DNA of 64,000 bases from an uncultured Candidatus Saccharibacteria bacterium. GTDB taxonomy: Bacteria; Patescibacteriota; Saccharimonadia; Saccharimonadales; AWTP1-31. The stretch's first letter is position 1. Every line of letters starts with the position of its first letter. A model generated the notes under the pieces. The model ran no database searches and had not been told where the DNA came from. It saw nothing but the letters and a program-made list of their open reading frames with translations. The stretch lies in the NCBI GenBank assembly GCA_937903325.1, contig CALCZR010000003.1:3898-67897 (forward strand), in the 5' to 3' direction. Position numbers and translations under genes: made by a program. Below, one piece after another: positions 11,618-60,228 of the stretch.

Positions 11618-11694
11618 GCCCCTGTAGCTCAGTGGTAAGAGCGGCCTGGCTTATATCCGGTGCGTCGAAGTTTCAATTACTTCCAGGGGTACCA
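11618..11694 (+). tRNA. tRNA, most likely anticodon UAU (Ile, AUA), with a non-canonical anticodon arm register
   Basis: Acceptor GCCCCTG/CAGGGGT; D-arm GCTC-AGTGGTAA-GAGC; T-arm GAAGT-TTCAATT-ACTTC; encoded ACCA 3' end. The anticodon stem pairs only if two nt (GG) separate it from the D-stem, giving loop CTTATAT. Confidence 0.8.
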
Positions 11695-18623: not shown

Positions 18624-19012
18624 TGGAAATCGGCGACGTTGTTAATATTGGCTCTGGTTATAATGGTGAACTAAAAATTGGAGACACTTTTGTAATTAGT
18701 GCTATTGAGAATCCTTCACTTGGTCATTGCGAAATGCGGCTTACTAATCGTAAGCCTGAACCCGTTGTTCTTAGTGAAGGCAGCCGTTTTACTGATCCGA
18801 ATTACTTTCTGCGGATTCCAGAAGGAACAGTTATTGATCGTGATGGTATTCGGTGTTATCTTGGCGATTATAACGGTTATGATGCGCTGATCGCTGTCGT
18901 GTCGATCCAAGATACAAATAATGTCTGGTACGTATCTAACGAGCGTAAAGATAATGTGACCTATACTGTGAGGCTTCTACCGCCCGGTGTTGATGAGGTC
19001 AAGATTCCGTGA
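18623..19012 (+). CDS. hypothetical protein, possibly same modular family (129 aa)
   Basis: MEIGDVVNIGSGYNGELKIGDTFVI, RIPEGTVIDRDG. Confidence 0.55.
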   Translation: MEIGDVVNIGSGYNGELKIGDTFVISAIENPSLGHCEMRLTNRKPEPVVLSEGSRFTDPNYFLRIPEGTVIDRDGIRCYLGDYNGYDALIAVVSIQDTNNVWYVSNERKDNVTYTVRLLPPGVDEVKIP

Positions 19013-19695
19013 AGTACAAGAATTCTCGACACCAAGACATCTGCGTCTCAATTATCCTCGGATCTTTTCTGACAGCGCTCTCGTACGTCACTGCGGCATT
19101 ATTCCATTGGATTGATCACGTTGACTGGCTAGAAGCCTTTGCAGTGTTCACCAGTTACTCTTGCACATATCTTTGTGTCAAGCAGCGACGAGTGAACTAC
19201 ATCATTGGCGCTCTAAGCACCCTAGCGTTCTCTCTGCTGTTCTATCGGGCCGATCTGCTAGCAAGTGCCCTACTGAACCTTTATCTGACCCCACAGCTTC
19301 TCTACGGCTGGATCAGATGGAACCGTGATGAGATCACTAGGCCAGTAACAAATGTCACCTGGAAGTCAGTGCCAGCCTATCTTGTAGTTACTGGTCTGTT
19401 CTGGTTCGGTGCATATAATCTTGTGAAGCTCTTTGATGGTCAGATGGCCGGATGGGATACAGCTATTCTTATCGGCAGTATTCTTGCACAGTTTCTTCTA
19501 GATAACAAGAAGCTTCAGACATGGATCGTATGGGCAGTGGTGAACGTCATTGCTATCATTCTCTACGCTAAGAATGGTCTACAGATTACTGCTTTTCAGT
19601 ACGTCTTTTTTCTGCTATCAGCTACATGGGGTTACAGATCATGGAGTAGATCTACCAATGGCACACATCTTTCTGCTACGACATCAGGTTTCTGA
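19009..19695 (+). CDS. pnuC: nicotinamide riboside transporter PnuC
   Basis: Multi-TM protein whose YxxxxxGWxxW-type segment (LYLTPQLLYGWIRW) and overall hydrophobic pattern fit PnuC; sits directly upstream of a NadR homologue. Confidence 0.75.
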   Translation: MKYKNSRHQDICVSIILGSFLTALSYVTAALFHWIDHVDWLEAFAVFTSYSCTYLCVKQRRVNYIIGALSTLAFSLLFYRADLLASALLNLYLTPQLLYGWIRWNRDEITRPVTNVTWKSVPAYLVVTGLFWFGAYNLVKLFDGQMAGWDTAILIGSILAQFLLDNKKLQTWIVWAVVNVIAIILYAKNGLQITAFQYVFFLLSATWGYRSWSRSTNGTHLSATTSGF

Positions 19696-19825
19696 CTCAA
19701 AGAAAACACACTGTCCTCAAGGACATGAATATAATGAACAAAATACTTATATAGACAAAATCGGTCGCAGACATTGTAGACCATGTGCACTAATAAGATA
19801 TCATAAAAACAAAGGAAATAAATAA
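19658..19825 (+). CDS. small zinc-ribbon protein (CPxGHxY...CRxC motif)
   Basis: HCPQGHEYNEQNTYIDKIGRRHCRPCALIRY. Only in-frame start is ATG 19658, overlapping the pnuC 3' end. TAATG junction with nadR. Confidence 0.45.
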   Translation: MAHIFLLRHQVSDSKKTHCPQGHEYNEQNTYIDKIGRRHCRPCALIRYHKNKGNK

Positions 19826-21705
19826 TGTCGCTTACATGGGTGTTGATGACGTGCTTGCCGCCAACTAAAGGCCATGCTGATATTGTAAAGTTTGCTGAAT
19901 CACTCGGGAATACACATGTAAGAATTCTGCTGTGTACACAACCTGACGAACCAATGACCTCTGAGCGACGAAGGGCTGTAATGGATCTCACAGTGTCATC
20001 ATACTACACACAGATACTTTACTATGATAGCCCTATCCAACAGGTTCCTAAAGATGATAAGGATACTGCTTTTTGGCAAACGTGGAGACGTATTCTGCAA
20101 AATAAAGGTTTCCGTGAAGGCGATACTATTGTAGCTTCTGATTCATACGGCAAGAAACTTGCTGAAGTGATGAACGCCCAGTTTATGCCGTATGACCCTG
20201 ATCGTTCAATGCGACCAGGTTGTGCAACGGATGTAAGGAAAGATCCGCTCAAGAATTTCTCTTACATTCTACCATCATTTCAGGGCTTTCTTCGTAAGAA
20301 GATTACGATTTTCGGTGCAGAATCCTGCCTAGATGCAGACACTTTTATTAATTTTGAAAAGCGCACAAAGAAAGGTCGCCGTCAAAATTCTAAGGGTGGG
20401 TCCATCGAAACTCTTTGGTACAATTTTCATAACAAATTGCAACCAGGGTCGGGTAGATATCTCCGACCTCAAACACTTGAATCTGAGTACTTCGCACCCT
20501 GTATGAACGATGAGGGTCGCATCTTTATGAACCAGATTACCGATGTGGTCGACACTGGGTTGAAAAATTGTTTTACAGTGACTACATCGCTAGGATATGA
20601 AATTACGGGAACGGCAGATCATAAATTTCACTCGGCCGGACAGTATGTTTGTCTAAGTGATCTCGATGTTGGTGATGAAGTTTCCATCCACAATGGAACT
20701 CGCTACGAGTGTGATGGCAGAGCAGACAACAATAAGTATGATGGCAGACTAGAGATTACACTAGAACCTATTCATCCTAAGGCTGGCCTTAAAACTGTCA
20801 CTGAAAATGGCATCGAGTACCGATACTCTCGAATTCGTAGGAATAGAGCCGTATACGAAGCTCATATGAATGGGCTAACCTTAGAAGAATATAGAGCAAA
20901 ATTTAAAAATCATGATATTGCAGGAATGATTTTTCTGGATACAGAAGATCACATTCATCACCTAGATGAAAATCCCCTGAATGATGACATCAATAATCTA
21001 GAATTGATCTCTGCATCAGAACACGGTAGGCTCCATGCCCTAGAACGTCATAACAATTTACGGTTTACAGTGGTTACGGATAAAATTACAAAAATTCAAG
21101 CTGTAGGTGAGCGTCATACTTACGATATCAAAATGTTAACACCATATCATAACTATGTAGCTGACAAATTTGTTGTTCATAACTGCGGTAAAACCACTTT
21201 GGCAAATGCACTAGCTACCGCACTAGACGGCATTGCTATTCCAGAGTATGCTAGACCTTATCTCGAAATGGTTGGCTCGGATATCACTGTAGCCAAGATG
21301 AAAAGTATTCATCGAGGTCAGAAAGTTCTCCAGAAGCAAGCCACGGATCTAGCGCTGGACAAGCCTTTCATCTTTCAAGATACTGACCTGTTCAGTACTC
21401 TAGGTTACTGGCATCTCTGGAACGATGGCCCTGAAGATCTGAGCCTGATGTCTGACGCAAGGTCTAGTAAATCAGACCTCTACATCGTCTGTCCAAGTAA
21501 TATTCCTTTCGAACAAGATCCGCTGCGTTATGGTGGCAAGGTTCGTGAAAGTACAGATGACTATTGGATCAATCTGTGTAAGAATTTCGACCTTAACTAC
21601 AAGGTTTTGACAACGAAGTCCAAAAAGGGTAGACTAGAAGAAGCGACGAAACTCGCTGTTGATCTGTTTAATCCGAGTCAGCTAGCATATGAAAGAGTAA
21701 AATGA
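19825..21705 (+). CDS. nadR: NadR-like NMN adenylyltransferase / ribosylnicotinamide kinase, interrupted by an intein
   Basis: Collinear with E. coli NadR as recalled: PPTKGHADIV (HxGH-type), DVRKDPLKNFSYILP, ITIFGAES[286-aa insert]CGKTTLANAL (Walker A), FQDTDLFST. Confidence 0.8.
   Translation: MSLTWVLMTCLPPTKGHADIVKFAESLGNTHVRILLCTQPDEPMTSERRRAVMDLTVSSYYTQILYYDSPIQQVPKDDKDTAFWQTWRRILQNKGFREGDTIVASDSYGKKLAEVMNAQFMPYDPDRSMRPGCATDVRKDPLKNFSYILPSFQGFLRKKITIFGAESCLDADTFINFEKRTKKGRRQNSKGGSIETLWYNFHNKLQPGSGRYLRPQTLESEYFAPCMNDEGRIFMNQITDVVDTGLKNCFTVTTSLGYEITGTADHKFHSAGQYVCLSDLDVGDEVSIHNGTRYECDGRADNNKYDGRLEITLEPIHPKAGLKTVTENGIEYRYSRIRRNRAVYEAHMNGLTLEEYRAKFKNHDIAGMIFLDTEDHIHHLDENPLNDDINNLELISASEHGRLHALERHNNLRFTVVTDKITKIQAVGERHTYDIKMLTPYHNYVADKFVVHNCGKTTLANALATALDGIAIPEYARPYLEMVGSDITVAKMKSIHRGQKVLQKQATDLALDKPFIFQDTDLFSTLGYWHLWNDGPEDLSLMSDARSSKSDLYIVCPSNIPFEQDPLRYGGKVRESTDDYWINLCKNFDLNYKVLTTKSKKGRLEEATKLAVDLFNPSQLAYERVK
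20326..21183 (+). mobile_element. HNH-type intein (286 aa) inside the NadR P-loop
   Basis: Starts Cys (TGC 20326) CLDADTFINF. Block B GTADHKF. HNH core HIHHLDENPLNDDINNLELISASEHGRLH. Ends VVHN (AAC 21181-21183) followed by the +1 Cys of CGKTT. In frame, no stops. Confidence 0.85.
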
Positions 21706-34015: not shown

Positions 34016-35515
34016 GTGACGTTCTTACTACTTGACAAAGAATATGAAATTTATCCTAAAGAACTTGTAGGTGGTAAGGCGTCCAATCTTCACCAGATGA
34101 TCCACGATGGCTTGCCTGTGCCGCAAGCGTTTGTCATCAGTGTAGACGAATGTTTCAAACTCGATTTCACCAGTGAACTCCACGAACATAACTCAGAGTT
34201 TGGATTGAGACTGAGTAGTCACATTCGTTACCTATCAATGATGACAGGCAAGCAGTGGAACAGTGACTATAATCCCCTACTTGTCTCTGTAAGATCAGGT
34301 GCCCCCATCTCCATGCCAGGTATGATGGAGACAGTACTGAACATTGGTCTGACCAGAAATAATCTTGATGCTTTCGTAGAAGCTCGTGGTGCTGACAGAG
34401 CCTTCGGGTTAGACTGTTACCGTAGACTGATCCAGATGTATGGTGTGACAGTTCATGGTATCCCAGCCGAAGCGTTCAGTAGTGTATATAATTCTGCAAG
34501 GATTTTCTACGAGGAACTGGACGAGAAAGCAAACGAAAACCTTGTCCGTCTTTACGAAGGTATTTTCTTTCAGCACGTCGGTATCGTCTTCCCTGATGAT
34601 CCTAACGAACAACTTCTACAAGCATGTAACGCAGTGTTCCGGTCTTGGCACAGCGAGAAAGCCAAGACTTATCGTGACCTAGAAGGTATTCCTCATGATA
34701 TGGGTACCGCTGTCACTGTGCAAGAAATGGTCTTTGGTAACCTTGACCGTCAGTCAGCTACAGGCGTTGTGTTCACTCATGATCCTAATACTGGTAAGCT
34801 CGGATGGTATGGCGACTTTCTTGTCGGGGCTCAAGGCGAAGATGTTGTTGCCGGTACACATAAGGTTCTCCATATCCAAGAGATTCTACAGGACGAGAAC
34901 TTGCGTAAGGCCGGTAAGGATCTACAGGTTACAATCGGTGGACTCTTCCACCGCTACAAGAGTATTCTTGATGTGGAGTTTACTATCGAATCAGGTAAGC
35001 TTTACATCTTGCAGTACCGTCAAGCTAAATGTTCACGTCAGGCAACCATTCGTTCTCTGATGGATATGGCACGACAAGGCGATATCAGTGTGCTAGATGG
35101 CACCAGTAAGATGATGGAACTGCTGCCGCCTATTGACCGTGGTACTCAAGACCCTGGTAACTTGACGCTACTCGGTAAAGGTCTAGGTGCCACTGAAGGT
35201 ATTGTTGTAGGTCAGATTGCGATTGGTCGTGATACTGCACGGGAATACCAAGAGCAAGGTATCAGTTATATCTATGTAGCCCATGAGACTGCACCAGACG
35301 ACGTTGAACAAATGAAGGGTGCCGTAGGTATCCTGACAGCCTCAGGTGGTCTGGTATCTCATGCTGCGCTTATTGCTAGAGGCTGGAACAAGACCTGTGT
35401 TCTAGGATTTGACCGGATCAAAGTACTCGAAGATCATTTCACATTCAATGGTGAGATGTATAAGAATGGGTCTTTGATGAAAATTAATGGCTCCACGGGA
35501 GAAATATTCGCATGA
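34016..35515 (+). CDS. PPDK/PEP-synthase-like dikinase fragment: ATP-grasp plus phospho-His swivel domain, no PEP/pyruvate-binding domain
   Basis: GGKASNL; VSVRSGAPISMPGMMETVLNIGL; AVTVQEMVFGN..ATGVVFTHDPNTG..GAQGEDVVAGT; LDVEFTIESGKLYILQYRQAK; GILTASGGLVSHAALIARGWNKTCVLG (His449 = CAT 35360-35362). Ends 50 aa after the His. Confidence 0.85.
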   Translation: MTFLLLDKEYEIYPKELVGGKASNLHQMIHDGLPVPQAFVISVDECFKLDFTSELHEHNSEFGLRLSSHIRYLSMMTGKQWNSDYNPLLVSVRSGAPISMPGMMETVLNIGLTRNNLDAFVEARGADRAFGLDCYRRLIQMYGVTVHGIPAEAFSSVYNSARIFYEELDEKANENLVRLYEGIFFQHVGIVFPDDPNEQLLQACNAVFRSWHSEKAKTYRDLEGIPHDMGTAVTVQEMVFGNLDRQSATGVVFTHDPNTGKLGWYGDFLVGAQGEDVVAGTHKVLHIQEILQDENLRKAGKDLQVTIGGLFHRYKSILDVEFTIESGKLYILQYRQAKCSRQATIRSLMDMARQGDISVLDGTSKMMELLPPIDRGTQDPGNLTLLGKGLGATEGIVVGQIAIGRDTAREYQEQGISYIYVAHETAPDDVEQMKGAVGILTASGGLVSHAALIARGWNKTCVLGFDRIKVLEDHFTFNGEMYKNGSLMKINGSTGEIFA

Positions 35516-36642
35516 ACTATGAATTGTCTCCTATGGAGAAAAAATATATGAAGCTTTTGGATGAACTCGAAGAGTTAAATCCAGGGGATGTAGTTGAAGC
35601 TAGTCGGATTAGTATTGAGATCAAGAATCTTGAAGACAAGATGTGGCTCGATCAGCAAGGTGAAAATACTGAGGGCATATCAGTTACTTGCCCTGACTGC
35701 TTCAAGACGGATGTTATCCATGTACCATGCGGTGACTATGTATACGATTGTATCTGTGGTGACAGCACAGAAGAATACTACTGTGGATGGTGCGGTCAGA
35801 ACTTTGATCCTGGATCAGAGCCGCTGGAAGTACAAAGCCTAGACGACTGGATGAGCAAGTACCAGGATCAGGTACTAGGTGATCTAGGGTTTACACAAGA
35901 TCCTCTGCCACAGAAGCCGATGAAAGATTGTAACTCCACGAGTAGACATCTTCATCAGCCTGTAACCCTACCTAATGGTGTGATTGTGCATTGCACTGCT
36001 CACCAGAATGCTAACAAGATCAACCAGAAACCAGACTTTGGCCTGTATGCCGATAGTGCTTGGGTCAGGACTTGTAAGTGGCGTAACGAAATCATCAACT
36101 GGCCTGACTTTAATCTCCCGGCAGACCTTGATGTAGCACTCAACCAGATTGAAGATGCCTACAAGCGTTGTGAAGCTGGTGAACATGTTGACATCGGTTG
36201 CCTAGGTGCTCATGGTCGCACAGGAACTATCCTCGCAATTATGGTGCTCTTGGCTACCAAGGGTGACCTCAGTGGACCGAAAGCATGTTCATGGGTATGG
36301 GAAAACTATTGCACTCATGCTATTGAGAACAAGAACCAAGAATGGTATGTTGCTTATGCCGCAGGTTATCTCTTCGGCCATGACATCCCCGATGAACCGG
36401 CGAAGCCAGTATCTAGTCAGGCAAGTATTTGTCTCCCCGTAGAGCATTTTGCTATGTATTCAGGTGGGCGCAGAGTCTGTGTGAATCCGAAGTGCAGTTG
36501 GTGGGAGAAAGATATCATCGAACTTTACAATGACCAGAAGATCGCTGGCGTTCCAGCCGAGACACTTGCAGCAGACAACCGATACCCGACACTACTAGAA
36601 AAGTATCAGGTGAATGATGGATCAAACGATCAAATTAGTTGA
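35512..36642 (+). CDS. Zn-ribbon plus Cys-based phosphatase-fold (WPD loop / CX5R) protein
   Basis: ATGA-coupled to the dikinase. CPDC..PCGDYVYDCICG..YCGWCG (aa 60-94). INWPDFNLP (aa 195-203). 31 aa after the WPD Asp: DIGCLGAHGRTGTILAIMVLL (Cys230 = TGC 36199-36201), resembling HCxxGxGRTGT of small PTPs. Confidence 0.7.
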   Translation: MNYELSPMEKKYMKLLDELEELNPGDVVEASRISIEIKNLEDKMWLDQQGENTEGISVTCPDCFKTDVIHVPCGDYVYDCICGDSTEEYYCGWCGQNFDPGSEPLEVQSLDDWMSKYQDQVLGDLGFTQDPLPQKPMKDCNSTSRHLHQPVTLPNGVIVHCTAHQNANKINQKPDFGLYADSAWVRTCKWRNEIINWPDFNLPADLDVALNQIEDAYKRCEAGEHVDIGCLGAHGRTGTILAIMVLLATKGDLSGPKACSWVWENYCTHAIENKNQEWYVAYAAGYLFGHDIPDEPAKPVSSQASICLPVEHFAMYSGGRRVCVNPKCSWWEKDIIELYNDQKIAGVPAETLAADNRYPTLLEKYQVNDGSNDQIS

Positions 36643-38335
36643 AGATGAACTTAGTAATATCACTCAAGTTTATCAACTTGTTGATGATGAGTGGGTGTGC
36701 ATCGGCGATATAGCTAACGGGTTACCCGACTCGGCATTTGAATCAGCAATAGAAAACATGCAAAAGAAAGCATTTATGGACGATGACTACGAGATTGCAG
36801 ATATCCTTGCGATGCTAGAAGAAGATGATGACCTAGAAATCAATGAGACAGATGAAGATTACATCCTAGACGAGATTAAGAATGCACCAGAGCTACCACC
36901 TAAGTTCAGTAAAAGTGGATTCGATCTGTCATTCCTGCTTGAAGATGAGTACCGTGAACGGTGGCAAGCAAAAGATGGTTGGACTAAAGTATGGCCTGAC
37001 ATCGATCTGAAAATTGATCCTTGTATGGCTGCCGCAGATAATTATCTTCTGTTCGGTATTGCTAACAACTCTTTTGTAGAGATCGTGCCACGATACTTTC
37101 CTTCCGATGAAGAGATTCGTCTAGCTGGTGAACTACTTGAAGCAACCGAGGTAGAGATCGAACAACGTGTTCGTGATGTCATGGTTCTCCGTGACGATGA
37201 TCCTACTTTGAAACTTGAAGAACTGAATCGTGAAGCTGATACACAGTATCGTATCTTGATCGACCATCTCGATGAAAGCTTCCGTCAGTACAGTCACCTT
37301 GCTTGTGGTGGTGAGCTACGATACATGCTGAAGTCTGACCCTTTCTACAGTCAGGAACGACGCTGGGCTTGGACTCAATGGGCTTTTGTCTATGAGAAGT
37401 ATGGCATCAAAGGTCTAGAAACAATGACCAAGATGTTTAACGAGAATGGTTATGGTGCCTTTGGTGGTAAGAAATGGGCAGCCGCATCAGAGATCCTTCT
37501 CGGTCGTGAAGCAGGAACTCTTGGTCCTGATGAACTAACGAACAAGCAGTTATTTATCGACCGTGTGTTCACTCTAGAACATAACACTGGTTCTTTCTTG
37601 AACAAGATGGCCTGGGCCAATAATCGTACAGGTCGTGACGGTGCTAGCGGTCATTGGGCTACTATGAAAAATACTGTTCTTCCCGCTCACTGCTCTAACC
37701 CTGTTGACATTCGGACGATGTATCGTTATGCGAGTGAGAACGTACAGAATCTTCTGATGAAGTATTTCAGTCTTGCTGAACAGTATGGTCTAGCTATCAA
37801 CGGTATTTGGGAAGAAAAGAAACCTCAGAATGAACTTTTGAAAAGTACAACTGTAAAGAATAGTTCTGCTCAAATTCTTGACTGGTCAGATGTTCCTGAC
37901 TTCATCGAAGATGAGATTGAAGAAGAAGAAGCGCCTACTATTTATGAAGGTCCTCTAGATGCTATGATTGCCACCCAGCAAAAATTGCTAGGCCAACAGG
38001 AAGCTTTTCCTTTCTACGTAACGACTGCAGAGGGTAACCACCCAGGCATTGTCGTAGCCAGTGATCCTTATGCCGCCCCAGTCTATGCTACTGCGGAGAT
38101 GCCTAATGGTCCACAGCATGAGCTTACTAAGCCTTACCTAGAGGCAAATTGGACCGGAAAAATGTACACTGAAATAGGTGTACTCGAAACAGGTAATCCA
38201 TGGTTATATTGCTACGCTCCTGGCACGCTCGAACATTTTGATTTTGCAATCTACGATGACTATCCACCTGTGAATTTGATTCATGCTGTAATTGAATGTC
38301 ACCTTAAGACACTGGAGTCTAATGGATCTAAATAG
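36614..38335 (+). CDS. hypothetical large protein (573 aa), acidic N-terminus
   Basis: Long ORF overlapping the upstream gene by 29 nt. Conserved-looking core HLACGGELRYML...FGGKKWAAASEILLG...FTLEHNTGSFLNKMAW; no family recognised. Confidence 0.7.
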   Translation: MMDQTIKLVEDELSNITQVYQLVDDEWVCIGDIANGLPDSAFESAIENMQKKAFMDDDYEIADILAMLEEDDDLEINETDEDYILDEIKNAPELPPKFSKSGFDLSFLLEDEYRERWQAKDGWTKVWPDIDLKIDPCMAAADNYLLFGIANNSFVEIVPRYFPSDEEIRLAGELLEATEVEIEQRVRDVMVLRDDDPTLKLEELNREADTQYRILIDHLDESFRQYSHLACGGELRYMLKSDPFYSQERRWAWTQWAFVYEKYGIKGLETMTKMFNENGYGAFGGKKWAAASEILLGREAGTLGPDELTNKQLFIDRVFTLEHNTGSFLNKMAWANNRTGRDGASGHWATMKNTVLPAHCSNPVDIRTMYRYASENVQNLLMKYFSLAEQYGLAINGIWEEKKPQNELLKSTTVKNSSAQILDWSDVPDFIEDEIEEEEAPTIYEGPLDAMIATQQKLLGQQEAFPFYVTTAEGNHPGIVVASDPYAAPVYATAEMPNGPQHELTKPYLEANWTGKMYTEIGVLETGNPWLYCYAPGTLEHFDFAIYDDYPPVNLIHAVIECHLKTLESNGSK

Positions 38336-39263
38336 ACTAGAGAAACAAGGTATTCCCACTCTAGGTATCCTGACATGGTACTCGGTAGATAATGAAGCTT
38401 CTATTGGCTACACAGAGTTTCGTGATATCATTAAAGAGTATAATGCTCCGCTAACTATTATGAAGGCTCCGAAACCGGAGAATGTTTTCAGGCGAGCATG
38501 TGAAGCCATTGACTTTACTTTCGACACTGCAGATGATACTATCATTACTTTCTCTATGAAAGATGAAGGCTTCCATAAGACCAAGGTTACTCGGTCGCTC
38601 TACGCAGAGTATCAGCGTAAAGATGTGACAGTCAAGGTCAAGGTTGCAACTGCCGTACTAGATAAGAAAACCAAAGACATCGAATGGGAATATCATCCAG
38701 ATACGACAGATATTGGAGGAGATGCTCTACCTGATGCAGCAGCACTAGCAGAGTATTACATCGCTTGTTACATGGAAGAACATGCAGATGCGCTCTACGC
38801 TCTACCTATTCGTGAAAGTATTCGTAAAGCAATCGATGGTTCCCTATGTGGTGTCAGTCTTAAAACTGCTGGCGGGGGTGTCTATTTTATCCCCCGAGTG
38901 AACTTCGAAGAGTTTGAAGCTATGGCTCTAGCCAGTTACGATATACCTATGGTAGTTGTAGAGTATATTCCTTGCCTGGATAACCGTGATAGTCGTAAGA
39001 TGGTAGAAGATTATCTTTTCAACCATCTTCATAAAGAATTACTGACGATGGAGTCAGCTATAGATGATCTACAATTGCTACTCTTTTCTGAAGAGCAAGT
39101 TTCGGCTAAAAAAGTAACCGAGATTCAAGATATGATTGATGCCTACAAGTCAAGACTGGCAGCGTATACATGGATTTCTAGAAAGCATGACCTGTATACA
39201 TCTATTGAAGGTGTACAGCGAGAGTTAGATAGACTAGTAGATGGAGATGAAGAAGATGAATGA
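38322..39263 (+). CDS. hypothetical protein (313 aa)
   Basis: GGAG-N5-ATG 38322, 14-nt overlap; contains GGVYFIPRVNFEEFEAM; no firm family call. Confidence 0.65.
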   Translation: MDLNRLEKQGIPTLGILTWYSVDNEASIGYTEFRDIIKEYNAPLTIMKAPKPENVFRRACEAIDFTFDTADDTIITFSMKDEGFHKTKVTRSLYAEYQRKDVTVKVKVATAVLDKKTKDIEWEYHPDTTDIGGDALPDAAALAEYYIACYMEEHADALYALPIRESIRKAIDGSLCGVSLKTAGGGVYFIPRVNFEEFEAMALASYDIPMVVVEYIPCLDNRDSRKMVEDYLFNHLHKELLTMESAIDDLQLLLFSEEQVSAKKVTEIQDMIDAYKSRLAAYTWISRKHDLYTSIEGVQRELDRLVDGDEEDE

Positions 39264-48255: not shown

Positions 48256-48464
48256 TGACAGAAAAAGGTCTACTAGAAACCATGCATGAAACGATTGAAG
48301 CACTAGCTGGAACAGTAGATAGTTTAACCAAAACAGTTGAATCACTTCAGACTCGGTTGCATGAACATATCACAATCAAGTCACCTTGGAATCTGAAGAT
48401 CGAAGATCAGATTACAGAACTTCAGAATAGACTAGACCGAGCAGAGGACCCGAGTTACCCATGA
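48255..48464 (+). CDS. hypothetical coiled-coil protein (69 aa)
   Basis: ORF; TAATG junction. Confidence 0.55.
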   Translation: MTEKGLLETMHETIEALAGTVDSLTKTVESLQTRLHEHITIKSPWNLKIEDQITELQNRLDRAEDPSYP

Positions 48465-49429
48465 AGAAACTAGGCGTCGTCGTAGGACGATTTCAGACAG
48501 AAATTCTGACCGCCACACACGTCGATTTAATCGATACTTCGCTCAGAGAAAATGATCATACGCTTATTGTGGTTGGAGTTGGACCGTTACCAACAACGGC
48601 TCGTAACCCACTCTCTTTCAACATGAGAGCAGCTATGATCGCTGATCATCTAACAGATACCGGGCATAGCACAGACACGCAAGTTAACATCATTGAACAG
48701 TTAGCGGATCATCCTGACGACAGGATCTGGTCAAATAGCCTAGACACTCTTATTTATGGCGCTGCAATGCAGCTAACCAATGAAGAAGTAGAAGTCACTC
48801 TGTACCACGGGCGGGATTCGTTCCGAGAAGTATATAGTGGGAACTACCCTAACTTTCATGAAATTGATGAGCATCCTCTAGACTCTGCGACCAGACGACG
48901 GGAAAATATTGGCAGGTACGATTGGCCCTATGTTCCTAAACGTTTTCGAGAAGGTGTTATCTGGGCTAACCAGAATCGTTTCCCTACGGTCTACTCTTGT
49001 GTAGATGCGGCTGTAGTATGGAACGAGTACTCAGATAAGATGAGACTGACTAACAAATACCTACTTCTTATCACGAAAGATATTGCAGAAGGTTACATGT
49101 TCCCTGGTGGATTCGCCGAGCTTAACTCAACAGATGAGGATGATGCCCGCCGTGAAGTCATGGAAGAAACCGGCATCGACATGTCTTTCGTTCACGCAGA
49201 ATGGCTCGGATCATTTACACAGGATGATTGGCGTTACCGTTCAGAAGTAGATGAAATTCGTACTCGTCTATTCTTATTTGAACCATATGGCCCACTGAGT
49301 GAACGACCTAAAGCGGTAGGTGCTGACGATGCAGCTACGGCACAGTGGGTTAACATTAAAGATCTGAAAGTTGAAGACTTTAACAAGTGCCACCGGGCAC
49401 TATTTGAAAGGCTATTAGAAGAACTATGA
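48461..49429 (+). CDS. bifunctional NMN adenylyltransferase / Nudix hydrolase (NadM-Nudix / NatV-like)
   Basis: N-terminus VVVGRFQTEILTATHVDLI (nucleotidyltransferase GRFxP.H.GH-like, degenerate). C-terminal Nudix box GGFAELNSTDEDDARREVMEETGI (GX5EX7REUXEEXGU). Confidence 0.75.
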   Translation: MKKLGVVVGRFQTEILTATHVDLIDTSLRENDHTLIVVGVGPLPTTARNPLSFNMRAAMIADHLTDTGHSTDTQVNIIEQLADHPDDRIWSNSLDTLIYGAAMQLTNEEVEVTLYHGRDSFREVYSGNYPNFHEIDEHPLDSATRRRENIGRYDWPYVPKRFREGVIWANQNRFPTVYSCVDAAVVWNEYSDKMRLTNKYLLLITKDIAEGYMFPGGFAELNSTDEDDARREVMEETGIDMSFVHAEWLGSFTQDDWRYRSEVDEIRTRLFLFEPYGPLSERPKAVGADDAATAQWVNIKDLKVEDFNKCHRALFERLLEEL

Positions 49430-50784
49430 ATCAAGAACTAATTGACCAGCTAAATCATAACATTATACTCAGTGTCGATTCATACAAGCTTTCACACTGG
49501 AAAATGCAACAGAAGGACCTTGAGAACATGGTCCTCTACTGGGAGATGCGTAAAGGTGCGAAGTATGAAGAGGCTGTTTTCTTTGGACTACAAGCTATCC
49601 TACTGAAGCATTTCACCGGGTGCCGTGTTGACGCTAACAAGATCCGTGAAGCCAAGCAATTCATTAACCCTCACATGGGACCCGGTGTCTTTAATGAGGA
49701 AGGTTGGACCTATATCTCAGAAAAGCTTGGTGGTCGTCTACCCGTACGTATTCAGGCTGTACCTGAAGGTTCTGTAAACCCGATCAACAGCGTTCTTTTT
49801 CACGTACAAGTTACGGATGAAAATTGTGCATGGCTAGCAGAGCCACTAGAAACAATCTTGTCTCACGTCTGGTACACTTCGACAGTAGCTACACTTTCTC
49901 GTGAAGTGAAGAAAGACTACTCGAAGTACATGAATGAGACGCTCGGTGGAGTTACTGGGATTGATTTCATGCTCCACGATTTCGGTGGGCGTGGCGTTAC
50001 CTGCTTTGAACAGATGGGTATAGGTGGTATGGCCCACCTTGTAAACTTCCAAGGTACCGATACTGTGCCTGGTCTGAAGGCTGCGTACGATTACTACGAT
50101 GCCGACCTGTCTACTCTCGGTTTTTCTGTGCCTGCTTCTGAGCACGCAGTCATGACTTCTCTTGGTGCTGACGGCGAGCTTGCAATCATTGAGCAGATCC
50201 TTGATGAGTTCCCTACAGGAATTGTCAGTGTTGTTGGTGATTCCTATGACATTGTGAACTTTGTTAAGAACATTGTTGGCACTCAGCTTCACGACCGCAT
50301 CATGAGCCGTGATGGCAAATTTGTTGTGCGACCTGATTCACCTACAGAAGAGTGGCCGATGGCTGCTGACCAGATGGTTTGGATCTACCAGACTCTATGG
50401 TATGCGTTCGGTGGTACTGAGTCACCTACTGGCTTTAAGATCCTTGATGACCATGTTGGTGTCCTCTGGGGTGATGGTATCGACCGTGGTGGTGTGCATC
50501 ATATCCTTATGGCGCTGAAGAACGCTGGCTTTGCTACGACGAACGTGTCTGGCATGGGCGGCGGTCTACTTCAGAAAGTAAACCGTGACACTCAGCGTTG
50601 TGTTATCAAGTGCTCCGCTCAGAAGCGGTCAGGTGTCTGGCACGATGTTCACAAGGAAACTTTCGGCAAAGTCTCTAAGGCTGGTCGGTTCCTTGAGCTT
50701 GACTTGCCTGTAGTCTTTGAGAACGGTGAACTTGTCCGCCGTTATACATTTGATGAGGTTCGAGAGAACGCTAAACTGCTATGA
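49426..50784 (+). CDS. nadV: nicotinamide phosphoribosyltransferase (NAMPT/NadV)
   Basis: NIILSVDSYKLSHW N-terminal signature, about 450 aa, ATGA-coupled to the NMNAT gene. Confidence 0.85.
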   Translation: MNQELIDQLNHNIILSVDSYKLSHWKMQQKDLENMVLYWEMRKGAKYEEAVFFGLQAILLKHFTGCRVDANKIREAKQFINPHMGPGVFNEEGWTYISEKLGGRLPVRIQAVPEGSVNPINSVLFHVQVTDENCAWLAEPLETILSHVWYTSTVATLSREVKKDYSKYMNETLGGVTGIDFMLHDFGGRGVTCFEQMGIGGMAHLVNFQGTDTVPGLKAAYDYYDADLSTLGFSVPASEHAVMTSLGADGELAIIEQILDEFPTGIVSVVGDSYDIVNFVKNIVGTQLHDRIMSRDGKFVVRPDSPTEEWPMAADQMVWIYQTLWYAFGGTESPTGFKILDDHVGVLWGDGIDRGGVHHILMALKNAGFATTNVSGMGGGLLQKVNRDTQRCVIKCSAQKRSGVWHDVHKETFGKVSKAGRFLELDLPVVFENGELVRRYTFDEVRENAKLL

Positions 50785-52867: not shown

Positions 52868-52886
52868 ATAAGATCTAAGTAAATTG

Positions 52887-52911
52887 GGAGGGCTTCGGCC
52901 CTCCTTTTTTT
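52887..52911 (+). terminator. rho-independent terminator
   Basis: GGAGGGC-TTCG-GCCCTCC (52887-52904) followed by TTTTTTT (52905-52911), 20 nt after the stop at 52867. Confidence 0.85.
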
Positions 52912-59383: not shown

Positions 59384-59776
59384 TTATTTAGGGCGATCGT
59401 CGGTGCCAAGTTTTCTGAGACGAAAGGTGAGTAGACACAATGCGTGCCAGGCAACACAGGCAAGATGGTAACAGTTAGATTCTTCATCGATATCTTCACC
59501 CATCCAAAATTGCATAGCGTGACGCTGAAGAGCATTGTAACTAGAGGTATAGTTATAGCCCTTCATGTAATTGAATCGGCCATCTTCCGTATCTGAAGTA
59601 TACTTACGAGCACCAAATCCAGCGATACGACCAAGCTCCCATAGAGCCTTAGGATCAATATCCCCCAGTTCGCATTCTTTCTGACCTTTAGCTCCACCAG
59701 TCTCGGAGACTACACGGGTTTCTTCAGGAATAATAGTTTGAGCCATCGGTAAGTCGGTAAAATCGTAAGTTGCCAT
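59384..59776 (-). CDS. DUF5664-like putative dNTP pyrophosphohydrolase
   Basis: ETGGAKGQK...IDPKALWELGRIAGFGARKY...ALQRHAMQFWMGEDIDEES..HLACVAWHALCLL follows the pattern of the phage dATP/dGTP diphosphohydrolase N-terminal family. Confidence 0.55.
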   Translation of the reverse strand: MATYDFTDLPMAQTIIPEETRVVSETGGAKGQKECELGDIDPKALWELGRIAGFGARKYTSDTEDGRFNYMKGYNYTSSYNALQRHAMQFWMGEDIDEESNCYHLACVAWHALCLLTFRLRKLGTDDRPK

Positions 59777-60228
59777 CAGCGGTTATCCCCCGATCCGCCA
59801 AGTACGTCTCTCTCACGACGATCTAGGAGCTTGTCTACGTTAGCCTGAGCTACGTCTGAGAGGGTCGTGCCAAGCTCTGCTGCTACTCGGCAGACGTACC
59901 ATAGCGTATCCCCTAGCTCAGCAAGGATAGCTTCACGTTTCTCATCTGTGATAATGAAGTCATCGTCACGCAGAATCTTTTTTACCTTGCCCTGAAGTTC
60001 TCCAGCTTCACCTAGTCCAAGTGCTACATATACGAGGGCAATCCAAGAGCCAGTGCCAGCTTCAGGATAGATAGCTGTTTGATTGAGAATCTCTTGATAG
60101 ATATCAAAACTACCATACACCTGACCGTGTGACACTTGTGATTCTCGAAGTTCCTTTTGAAACTGTTGAAGCTTTTTTACAGCCGGTGAAATATCAATAT
60201 CAGTTTTAACTTCTACATCTTCAGTCAT
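59776..60228 (-). CDS. mazG: MazG-like nucleoside triphosphate pyrophosphohydrolase
   Basis: GLGEAGELQGKVKKILRDD...ILAELGDTLWYVCRVAAELGTTLSDVAQANVDKL: EExGE / ExxD MazG helices. Confidence 0.8.
   Translation of the reverse strand: MTEDVEVKTDIDISPAVKKLQQFQKELRESQVSHGQVYGSFDIYQEILNQTAIYPEAGTGSWIALVYVALGLGEAGELQGKVKKILRDDDFIITDEKREAILAELGDTLWYVCRVAAELGTTLSDVAQANVDKLLDRRERDVLGGSGDNR

Follow-up and report, generated by a model that had tools for sequence, protein, structure and literature searches.

The stretch of DNA analysed here, 64,000 nucleotides (nt) of contig CALCZR010000003.1 that are referred to below as the window, carries two coupled genes whose products are predicted to rebuild NAD+ from nicotinamide. 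Gene 1 encodes a bifunctional protein resembling NadM and NatV, in which a nicotinamide mononucleotide (NMN) adenylyltransferase (NMNAT) is fused to a Nudix hydrolase. Gene 2 encodes a nicotinamide phosphoribosyltransferase of the NAMPT/NadV type. An ATGA start/stop overlap at 49426-49429 joins the two genes. Overlaps of the same kind link an upstream open reading frame (ORF) of 69 amino acids (aa) to gene 1 at 48461-48464, and gene 2 to a downstream 181-aa exonuclease-like ORF at 50781-50784. With a probability of about 0.78, the coupled genes form an NAD+ salvage cassette of the NARP2 type, carried by an uncultured phage whose polymerase is of the DnaE type. The elements of the pair are as follows.

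48461..49429, + strand: gene 1, NadM/NatV-like bifunctional protein, 322 aa, ATG start
48485..48520, + strand: NMNAT motif 1 of gene 1, G9-R-F-Q-T-E-I-L-T17-A-T-H20 (clade consensus GRFQVxELHxGH)
48884..48901, + strand: NMNAT motif 2 of gene 1, S142-A-T-R-R-R147 (SxTxxR)
49106..49177, + strand: Nudix box of gene 1, GGFAELNSTDEDDARREVMEETGI, aa 216-239 (catalytic core REVMEETG, aa 231-238)
49426..50784, + strand: gene 2, nicotinamide phosphoribosyltransferase (NAMPT/NadV), 452 aa, ATG start

A preliminary description of this region had reported two ORFs with ATGA coupling and had quoted their signature motifs. The coordinates are exactly as it claimed, and the strings GGFAELNSTDEDDARREVMEETGI, TEILTATHVDLI (aa 13-24 of gene 1) and DSYKLSHW (aa 18-25 of gene 2, nt 49477-49500) are all present.

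Gene 2 clearly encodes a nicotinamide phosphoribosyltransferase, with an activity that is predicted from its sequence. It matches the Pfam families NAMPT_N (PF18127, E=8e-30) and NAPRTase (PF04095, E=2e-31), exceeds the cutoff of the NCBIfam equivalog NF006629 (447.9 bits; cutoff 405) and matches phrog_448, 'nicotinamide phosphoribosyl transferase', at E=4e-127. Structures of human and rodent NAMPT match it at E of approximately 1e-99, and a global alignment to the human enzyme gives 44.5% identity. The human sequence used (491 aa) agrees with the one in the alignment from the structure search. Residues equivalent to human Y18, F193, R196, D219, H247 and S275, as well as R311, D313, G353, D354, G383-385, R392 and K400, are all kept. 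The roles of these residues are established for the human enzyme, in which H247 is the autophosphorylated histidine.

Metagenomic copies of gene 2 are not all alike. One contig (L005, Logan SRR29782978) matches the window at 100% identity on either side of the NAMPT core, and the whole NMNAT-Nudix gene falls within the matching part. Over the core of the NAMPT gene, equivalent to window positions 49450-50560, its identity is 55-80% at the DNA level and 75% at the protein level, a pattern that points to an allele swap through recombination inside the gene. The L005 allele alters residues that adjoin the active site, changing DSYK to DLYK and GDSYDI to GDGFDI. A separate variant, R391C, is carried by two further contigs (L001 and L006).

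Gene 1 is composed of an NMNAT domain at approximately aa 1-172 and a Nudix hydrolase domain at approximately aa 176-322, the latter matching NUDIX (PF00293) over aa 201-317 with E=8.6e-10. Its best sequence match in the PDB, found with phmmer, is the Francisella tularensis NadM structure 2qjt (E=3e-9). A database search recovered 128 homologues, nearly all of them metagenomic and none more than 60% identical. An AlphaFold2 model built on 118 homologues has a mean predicted local distance difference test score (pLDDT) of 94.3 and a predicted template modelling score of 0.83, and pLDDT exceeds 90 in the N-terminal domain. When this model is compared to the PDB with Foldseek, the top six matches are to 2qjt and 2r5w from F. 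tularensis and 2qjo from Synechocystis, covering both domains with E from 3e-18 to 1e-14. The next-ranked matches are Nudix domains that bind ADP-ribose or NAD (NrtR-ADPR, the TRPM2 Nudix domain and NudC). The Foldseek template modelling scores are low (approximately 0.4), as the two domains are oriented differently to each other in the model and in these structures. Gene 1 is a NadM/NatV-type fusion of a divergent clade; its NMNAT half is the weaker one by sequence and is confirmed by its modelled fold.

Comparison to bacterial NadM proteins shows what this clade has retained and what it has changed. The F. tularensis enzyme and Synechocystis slr0787 (2qjo), both of them bifunctional NMNAT/ADP-ribose pyrophosphatases, have the same two-domain architecture and fold as gene 1, and GRFQ, the motif 1 histidine, SxTxxR and the Nudix REUxEExG core are common to all. 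In contrast, overall identity is just 19-20% or so, and the clade of gene 1 is made up mostly of metagenomic and viral sequences. Motif 1 reads GRFQTEILTATH in gene 1, with a 2-residue insertion and no proline, versus GRFQPFHKGH in NadM; the insertion and the loss of proline from the NadM form GRFQPFHxGH are found across the clade. In the Nudix box, Gx5Ex7REUxEExGU, gene 1 has the REVMEETGI core and G217. The first glutamate is replaced by Ser223, a position that is variable in the family. Within the family, E232, E235 and E236 do not vary, and R231 is kept in 99%.

The preliminary description regarded the (H/T)xGH motif of the NMNAT domain as degenerate. The published NMNAT consensus is GxFxPx[H/T]xxH plus ISSTxxR (PMC5889475). 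T-x-x-H falls within this consensus, and motif 1 is therefore not functionally degenerate: TATH fits [H/T]xxH and SATRRR is kept. What is unusual is the replacement of glycine by threonine at position 19, together with the clade-wide insertion. In the family alignment (118-120 homologues), 87 members carry H at position 17, 19 carry N, 7 carry T and 4 carry S. At position 19 the usual residues are G and A, with V, I, E and S being rarer. R10 never varies, and H20 is present in 97%. T17 caps a helix (residues 18-30) in the AlphaFold2 model, immediately after the strand formed by residues 2-9. Human NMNAT1 and NMNAT3 carry T-N-M-H. Gene 1 DNA identical to that of the window is found in six metagenome contigs that are independent of one another and come from at least five samples, so TATH is not a sequencing or assembly error. 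With all metagenome copies identical, synonymous and nonsynonymous variation of gene 1 is uninformative.

The two ATP motifs are lost together in this family. SxTxxR is kept in 73 of the 85 members with HxxH and in 7 of the 8 with TxxH, and it is lost in every one of the 23 members whose motif 1 is [N/S]x[I/V]H, a group that does not include the query. The query keeps 14 of 14 invariant columns and nearly all columns that are at least 90% conserved, D83 and W90 among them. The corresponding residues of NatV from Vibrio phage KVP40 would be D78 and W85, which have the same 7-residue spacing and have been named as NAD+-recognition residues (NARP3 paper, PMC13464706). As judged from the alignment, the query belongs to the class of family members with intact NMNAT motifs.

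The 23 of 118 homologues that have neither ATP motif (for example, P0056, P0058, P0063 and P0088) retain an intact Nudix box. Their N-terminal regions are candidate pseudo-NMNAT domains.

Decay or relaxed constraint specific to the NMNAT domain of the query was considered and rejected. The query is 0.41-0.46 identical to its four closest relatives in the N-terminal domain and 0.73-0.79 identical in the Nudix domain. Yet all five lineages are equally far from outgroups, the N-domain identity to these being 0.370 for the query and 0.369-0.383 for the four relatives. The closest relatives also display mosaicism at the level of domains. P0003 and P0004, for example, share 100% identity in the Nudix domain and 57% in the N-terminal domain.

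Gene 1 and gene 2 belong to a conserved unit. Relatives of gene 1 are encoded by 259 IMG/VR contigs, 80 of which were fetched for synteny. A NAMPT gene resides within 6 kb in 75 of these 80 loci, on the same strand every time. It lies downstream of the gene 1 relative in 74 loci, and in 54 the two are no more than 300 nt apart. The cultured phages DSS3P8, RHph_X66, BUCT-ZZ01, DLP_6 and SCTP-2 likewise have the two genes adjacent and in this order. Agreeing with this distribution, published work reports NadV in every phage that contains NadM, and Nmnat is encoded by 94% of the phages with KVP40-type Nampt (Osterman et al. 2024). Other neighbours of the pair in the window were also considered as functional partners. 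They were rejected, as the 80 loci contain zero matches to the downstream exonuclease-like gene, one to the upstream DUF7275 gene and zero to the upstream NT5C gene.

Seven related viral loci (L015, L017, L018, L023, L024, L026 and L074) carry, 1-4 kb downstream of their NMNAT-Nudix and NAMPT genes, a PRPS-like gene that may encode a synthetase of phosphoribosyl pyrophosphate (PRPP) feeding NAMPT. No PRPS-like gene of that kind is found in this window.

A close characterized counterpart is NARP2, the NadV and NatV pair of KVP40 (Osterman et al. 2024). It employs the same two enzyme types and the same predicted chemistry, and both pairs are phage-encoded, include an NMNAT-Nudix fusion and lack Adps. 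The proposal in the preliminary description that an NMNAT-Nudix protein and a NAMPT constitute the two-enzyme route of KVP40 is supported by domains, fold, active-site residues, lack of Adps and synteny. Gene 1 is very distant from KVP40 NatV, and tblastn finds no match to it in Schizotequatrovirus at E of 1e-3 or below. Gene 2 resembles human NAMPT (44.5% identity) more than it does the KVP40-type NadV, to which it is 35.6% identical in tblastn (neighbour-joining distance 0.68). Furthermore, natV and nadV are not adjacent in the KVP40-like phage R10Z, which has no NatV-like gene within 3 kb of nadV, whereas the genes in the window are adjacent and coupled. The architecture of the window is thus the adjacent-pair form of other phages rather than that of KVP40.

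The predicted pathway begins with the nicotinamide that SIR2-, TIR- and SEFIR-type NADases release as their pyridine product. NAMPT would combine nicotinamide with PRPP to make NMN, and the N-terminal domain of gene 1 would use ATP to convert NMN to NAD+. The Nudix domain most likely acts on ADP-ribose, and possibly also on NAD(H), yielding AMP and ribose-5-phosphate by hydrolysis. This step would remove the other cleavage product and send its carbon back towards PRPP. The net effect would be that NAD+ stays available during infection, including infection of hosts that deplete NAD+. Enzyme activities, Nudix substrate, expression timing and anti-defence phenotype are all predicted here from sequences and models.

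The KVP40 pair abolished defence by type I Thoeris and by DSR2 (Osterman et al. 2024). The list of NAD+-depleting systems in the preliminary description, which ran from TIR, SIR2 and SEFIR types and DSR to type II Thoeris, is broader than this. NAD+ is not depleted by type II Thoeris, which has been used as a negative control. Activity against DSR1, SIR2-HerA and SEFIR was shown for NARP1, and in the preprint the tests of NARP2 itself were confined to type I Thoeris and DSR2 (Osterman et al. 2024).

The source of the window is an uncultured phage from a lineage far from any isolate. Neither the window nor the gene pair has a megablast match among 50,697 phage records, and the DnaE-type polymerase of the window is at most 40% identical to the polymerases of actinophages and gut phage contigs. 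RIIA, RecA/UvsX, RuvB, an RNA ligase and homing endonucleases are also encoded. The gene pair is situated within a long array of genes for replication and nucleotide metabolism that all point the same way, which includes an NT5C nucleotidase, an RNase H/exonuclease-like gene and an ATP-dependent DNA ligase (PF01068) on the same strand. This rightward array ends at 52886-52905 with the only strong terminator on the + strand, and RecA/UvsX and DnaE are on the opposite strand just past it. Sites resembling sigma-70 promoters are no more frequent than in shuffled sequence.

Several other features of the window merit mention. Its sole tRNA is a tRNA-Ile with anticodon TAT (11618-11694, + strand). 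A block at 34016-39263 (+ strand) is headed by a 499-aa PPDK_N/PEP-utilizer 'kinase' (phrog_18609, E=5e-108) and continues with ORFs of 376 and 573 aa that have no family, followed by a DUF6744 protein. Beside the DnaE polymerase operon, at approximately 59400-60228 on the - strand, there is a gene with a precomputed match to PF18909 (dGTP_diPhyd_N; seen at 11784-11829 of contig L002). This match may hint at editing of the nucleotide pool or at modified DNA.

A second predicted route to NAD+, which the preliminary description overlooked, is encoded elsewhere in the same window by the following elements.

19009..19695, + strand: PnuC-type nicotinamide riboside/NMN transporter, 228 aa (PF04973 NMN_transporter, E=4.2e-38)
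19825..21705, + strand: NadR-like protein combining an NMNAT (PPTKGH) with a ribosylnicotinamide kinase, 626 aa (phrog_3462, E=1e-47; AAA_28, Intein_splicing and HNH_3)
20326..21183, + strand: HNH intein, 286 aa (aa 168-453 of the NadR-like protein), splitting the kinase P-loop (Walker A) as GAES/C...VVHN/CGKTT

The intein begins with C1 and ends in HN followed by C+1. When it is spliced out in silico, the resulting 340-aa extein has NadR-family proteins as its best PDB matches over both domains (9x6f, 8x7f and 1lw7), and the restored P-loop, GAESCGKTT, aligns with GTESSGKTT. The top match, 9x6f, is probably the phage enzyme Bas30_86. The closest homologues from cultured phages, which infect Microbacterium, Sinorhizobium and Agrobacterium, are without the intein insert. 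PnuC and a NadR-like protein that lacks the helix-turn-helix domain together form a NARP3-type pair, whose predicted activity would depend on intein splicing. This architecture was named NARP3 in 2026 (Sci Adv 2026, PMC13464706), where it is described mainly in phages of Enterobacteriaceae. The same adjacent pair is found in phage TrudiRoth (Bas30_86/87; PMC13464706). The copy in the window differs in that its P-loop is split by an intein, and it is a module separate from the NAMPT pair. Co-occurrence of NadR, NadM and NadV in large phages has previously been noted in the literature.

A small ORF at 19550-19825 (+ strand) overlaps the 3' end of pnuC. It has no Pfam match, and its C-terminal part, HCPQGHEYNEQNTYIDKIGRRHCRPCALIRYHKNKG, looks like a Cys/His zinc-finger peptide.

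Several observations weigh against the reading of the pair as a NARP2-type cassette and lend themselves to other explanations. One concerns gene 2. Namat enzymes, which serve NARP1 together with Adps, are homologous to Nampt and annotated identically, they likewise belong to a pathway whose end product is NAD+, and KVP40 Nampt has some side activity on ADP-ribose pyrophosphate (ADPR-PP; Osterman et al. 2024). Gene 2 might accordingly be a NARP1-type Namat that joins nicotinamide to ADPR-PP, but this is very improbable. Phylogeny tells the two enzymes apart, and so does the partner gene, which is Adps in the case of Namat and Nmnat in that of Nampt (Osterman et al. 2024). A 'ribose-phosphate pyrophosphokinase' (Adps) is encoded directly upstream of the NAMPT homologue in all three NARP1 reference loci, which are those of Staphylococcus phage JD007, a Felixounavirus and Pakpunavirus PAK_P2. 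The 64-kb window contains no Adps (the best tblastn match to the three Adps proteins has E=0.13) and no PRPS-like domain among its ORFs of at least 280 aa, and the partner of gene 2 is an NMNAT. In a neighbour-joining tree of 75 NAMPT homologues, which is distance-based and without bootstrap, the three Adps-linked Namats form an exclusive clade and are among the proteins most distant from gene 2 (0.72-0.76). Gene 2 groups with NAMPTs that adjoin NMNAT-Nudix genes, and its identity to human NAMPT likewise speaks against a Namat. Its predicted substrate is PRPP and not ADPR-PP. Nevertheless, the window is part of a genome, and Adps or a PRPP synthetase elsewhere in that genome is possible.

Other adverse points concern the NMNAT domain of gene 1. 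Among the Pfam searches called for in the preliminary description, those for NAPRTase and NUDIX succeeded, while CTP_transf_like has no match to gene 1. The NCBIfam NadM equivalogs (PRK05379 models) score gene 1 at only 60 bits (E=2e-16) versus cutoffs of 354-449, which makes it a member of a divergent clade and not an equivalog-level NadM. The threonine at position 19 is unique among the 118 homologues, the closest relatives having HxGH, and the threonine at position 17 is a minority state. TATH might therefore impair the NMNAT, leaving gene 1 to act mainly as an ADP-ribose/NAD pyrophosphatase or an NMN-binding regulator while the NadR-like protein or host NadD/NadR adenylates NMN. The NadR-like gene 27 kb upstream does offer a second NMNAT with a canonical TKGH that could do so, and the candidate pseudo-NMNAT subclade illustrates that NMNAT loss with an intact Nudix domain occurs in this family. 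Such impairment is unlikely, however, because gene 1 is unlike the decayed subclade. It keeps H20, SATRRR, R10, D83, W90 and the other invariant columns, T-x-x-H is inside the published consensus (PMC5889475), and the N-terminal domain is confidently modelled and no more divergent than in sister lineages. On alignment, gene 2 keeps every active-site residue that was checked, and gene 1 keeps the catalytic histidine of its NMNAT domain. The role for which the pair was selected is a separate question. Even where cells have no defence system, NAD+ is raised by NARP2, so that the data fit a general metabolic role as well as they fit a dedicated anti-defence role. The pair also resides in an array of replication and nucleotide-metabolism genes. 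The 2017 study of KVP40 by Lee et al. reportedly interpreted the pathway as metabolic resource control. Auxiliary metabolic genes that carry out the same chemistry for metabolic provisioning, and not for counter-defence, are a genuine if doubtful possibility. One obvious NAD+ consumer is missing, since the DNA ligase of the phage is ATP-dependent (PF01068), and the KVP40 pair abolishes Thoeris and DSR2 defence by experiment. The two roles are not mutually exclusive.

A more elaborate scenario would combine the two modules into a layered NAD+ arsenal. It would comprise a NARP2-type module with an altered TATH motif, possibly affecting nucleotide preference or regulation, and an intein-gated NARP3-type module. 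Swapping of the NAMPT core, which is 75% identical at the amino acid level between flanks that are 100% identical, could then reflect selection by host factors that target phage NAD+ reconstitution. This scenario is decidedly speculative and quite unlikely to be correct as a whole.

Reconstitution of NAD+ by phages is already known, and the gene pair described here is a new but ordinary example that leaves the current picture of phage NAD+ counter-defence unchanged. It adds an uncultured phage lineage, distant from all isolates, to those with NARP2-type reconstitution, and it shows that NMNAT-Nudix with NAMPT adjacent and downstream is the common form of the cassette in viral metagenomes. The joint loss of motif 1 and SxTxxR offers a practical criterion by which decayed NMNAT domains of such fusions can be distinguished from intact ones. 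Of modest interest beyond this are the divergent, metagenome-dominated clade of NadM proteins to which gene 1 belongs and the presence of both NARP2- and NARP3-type modules in one phage.

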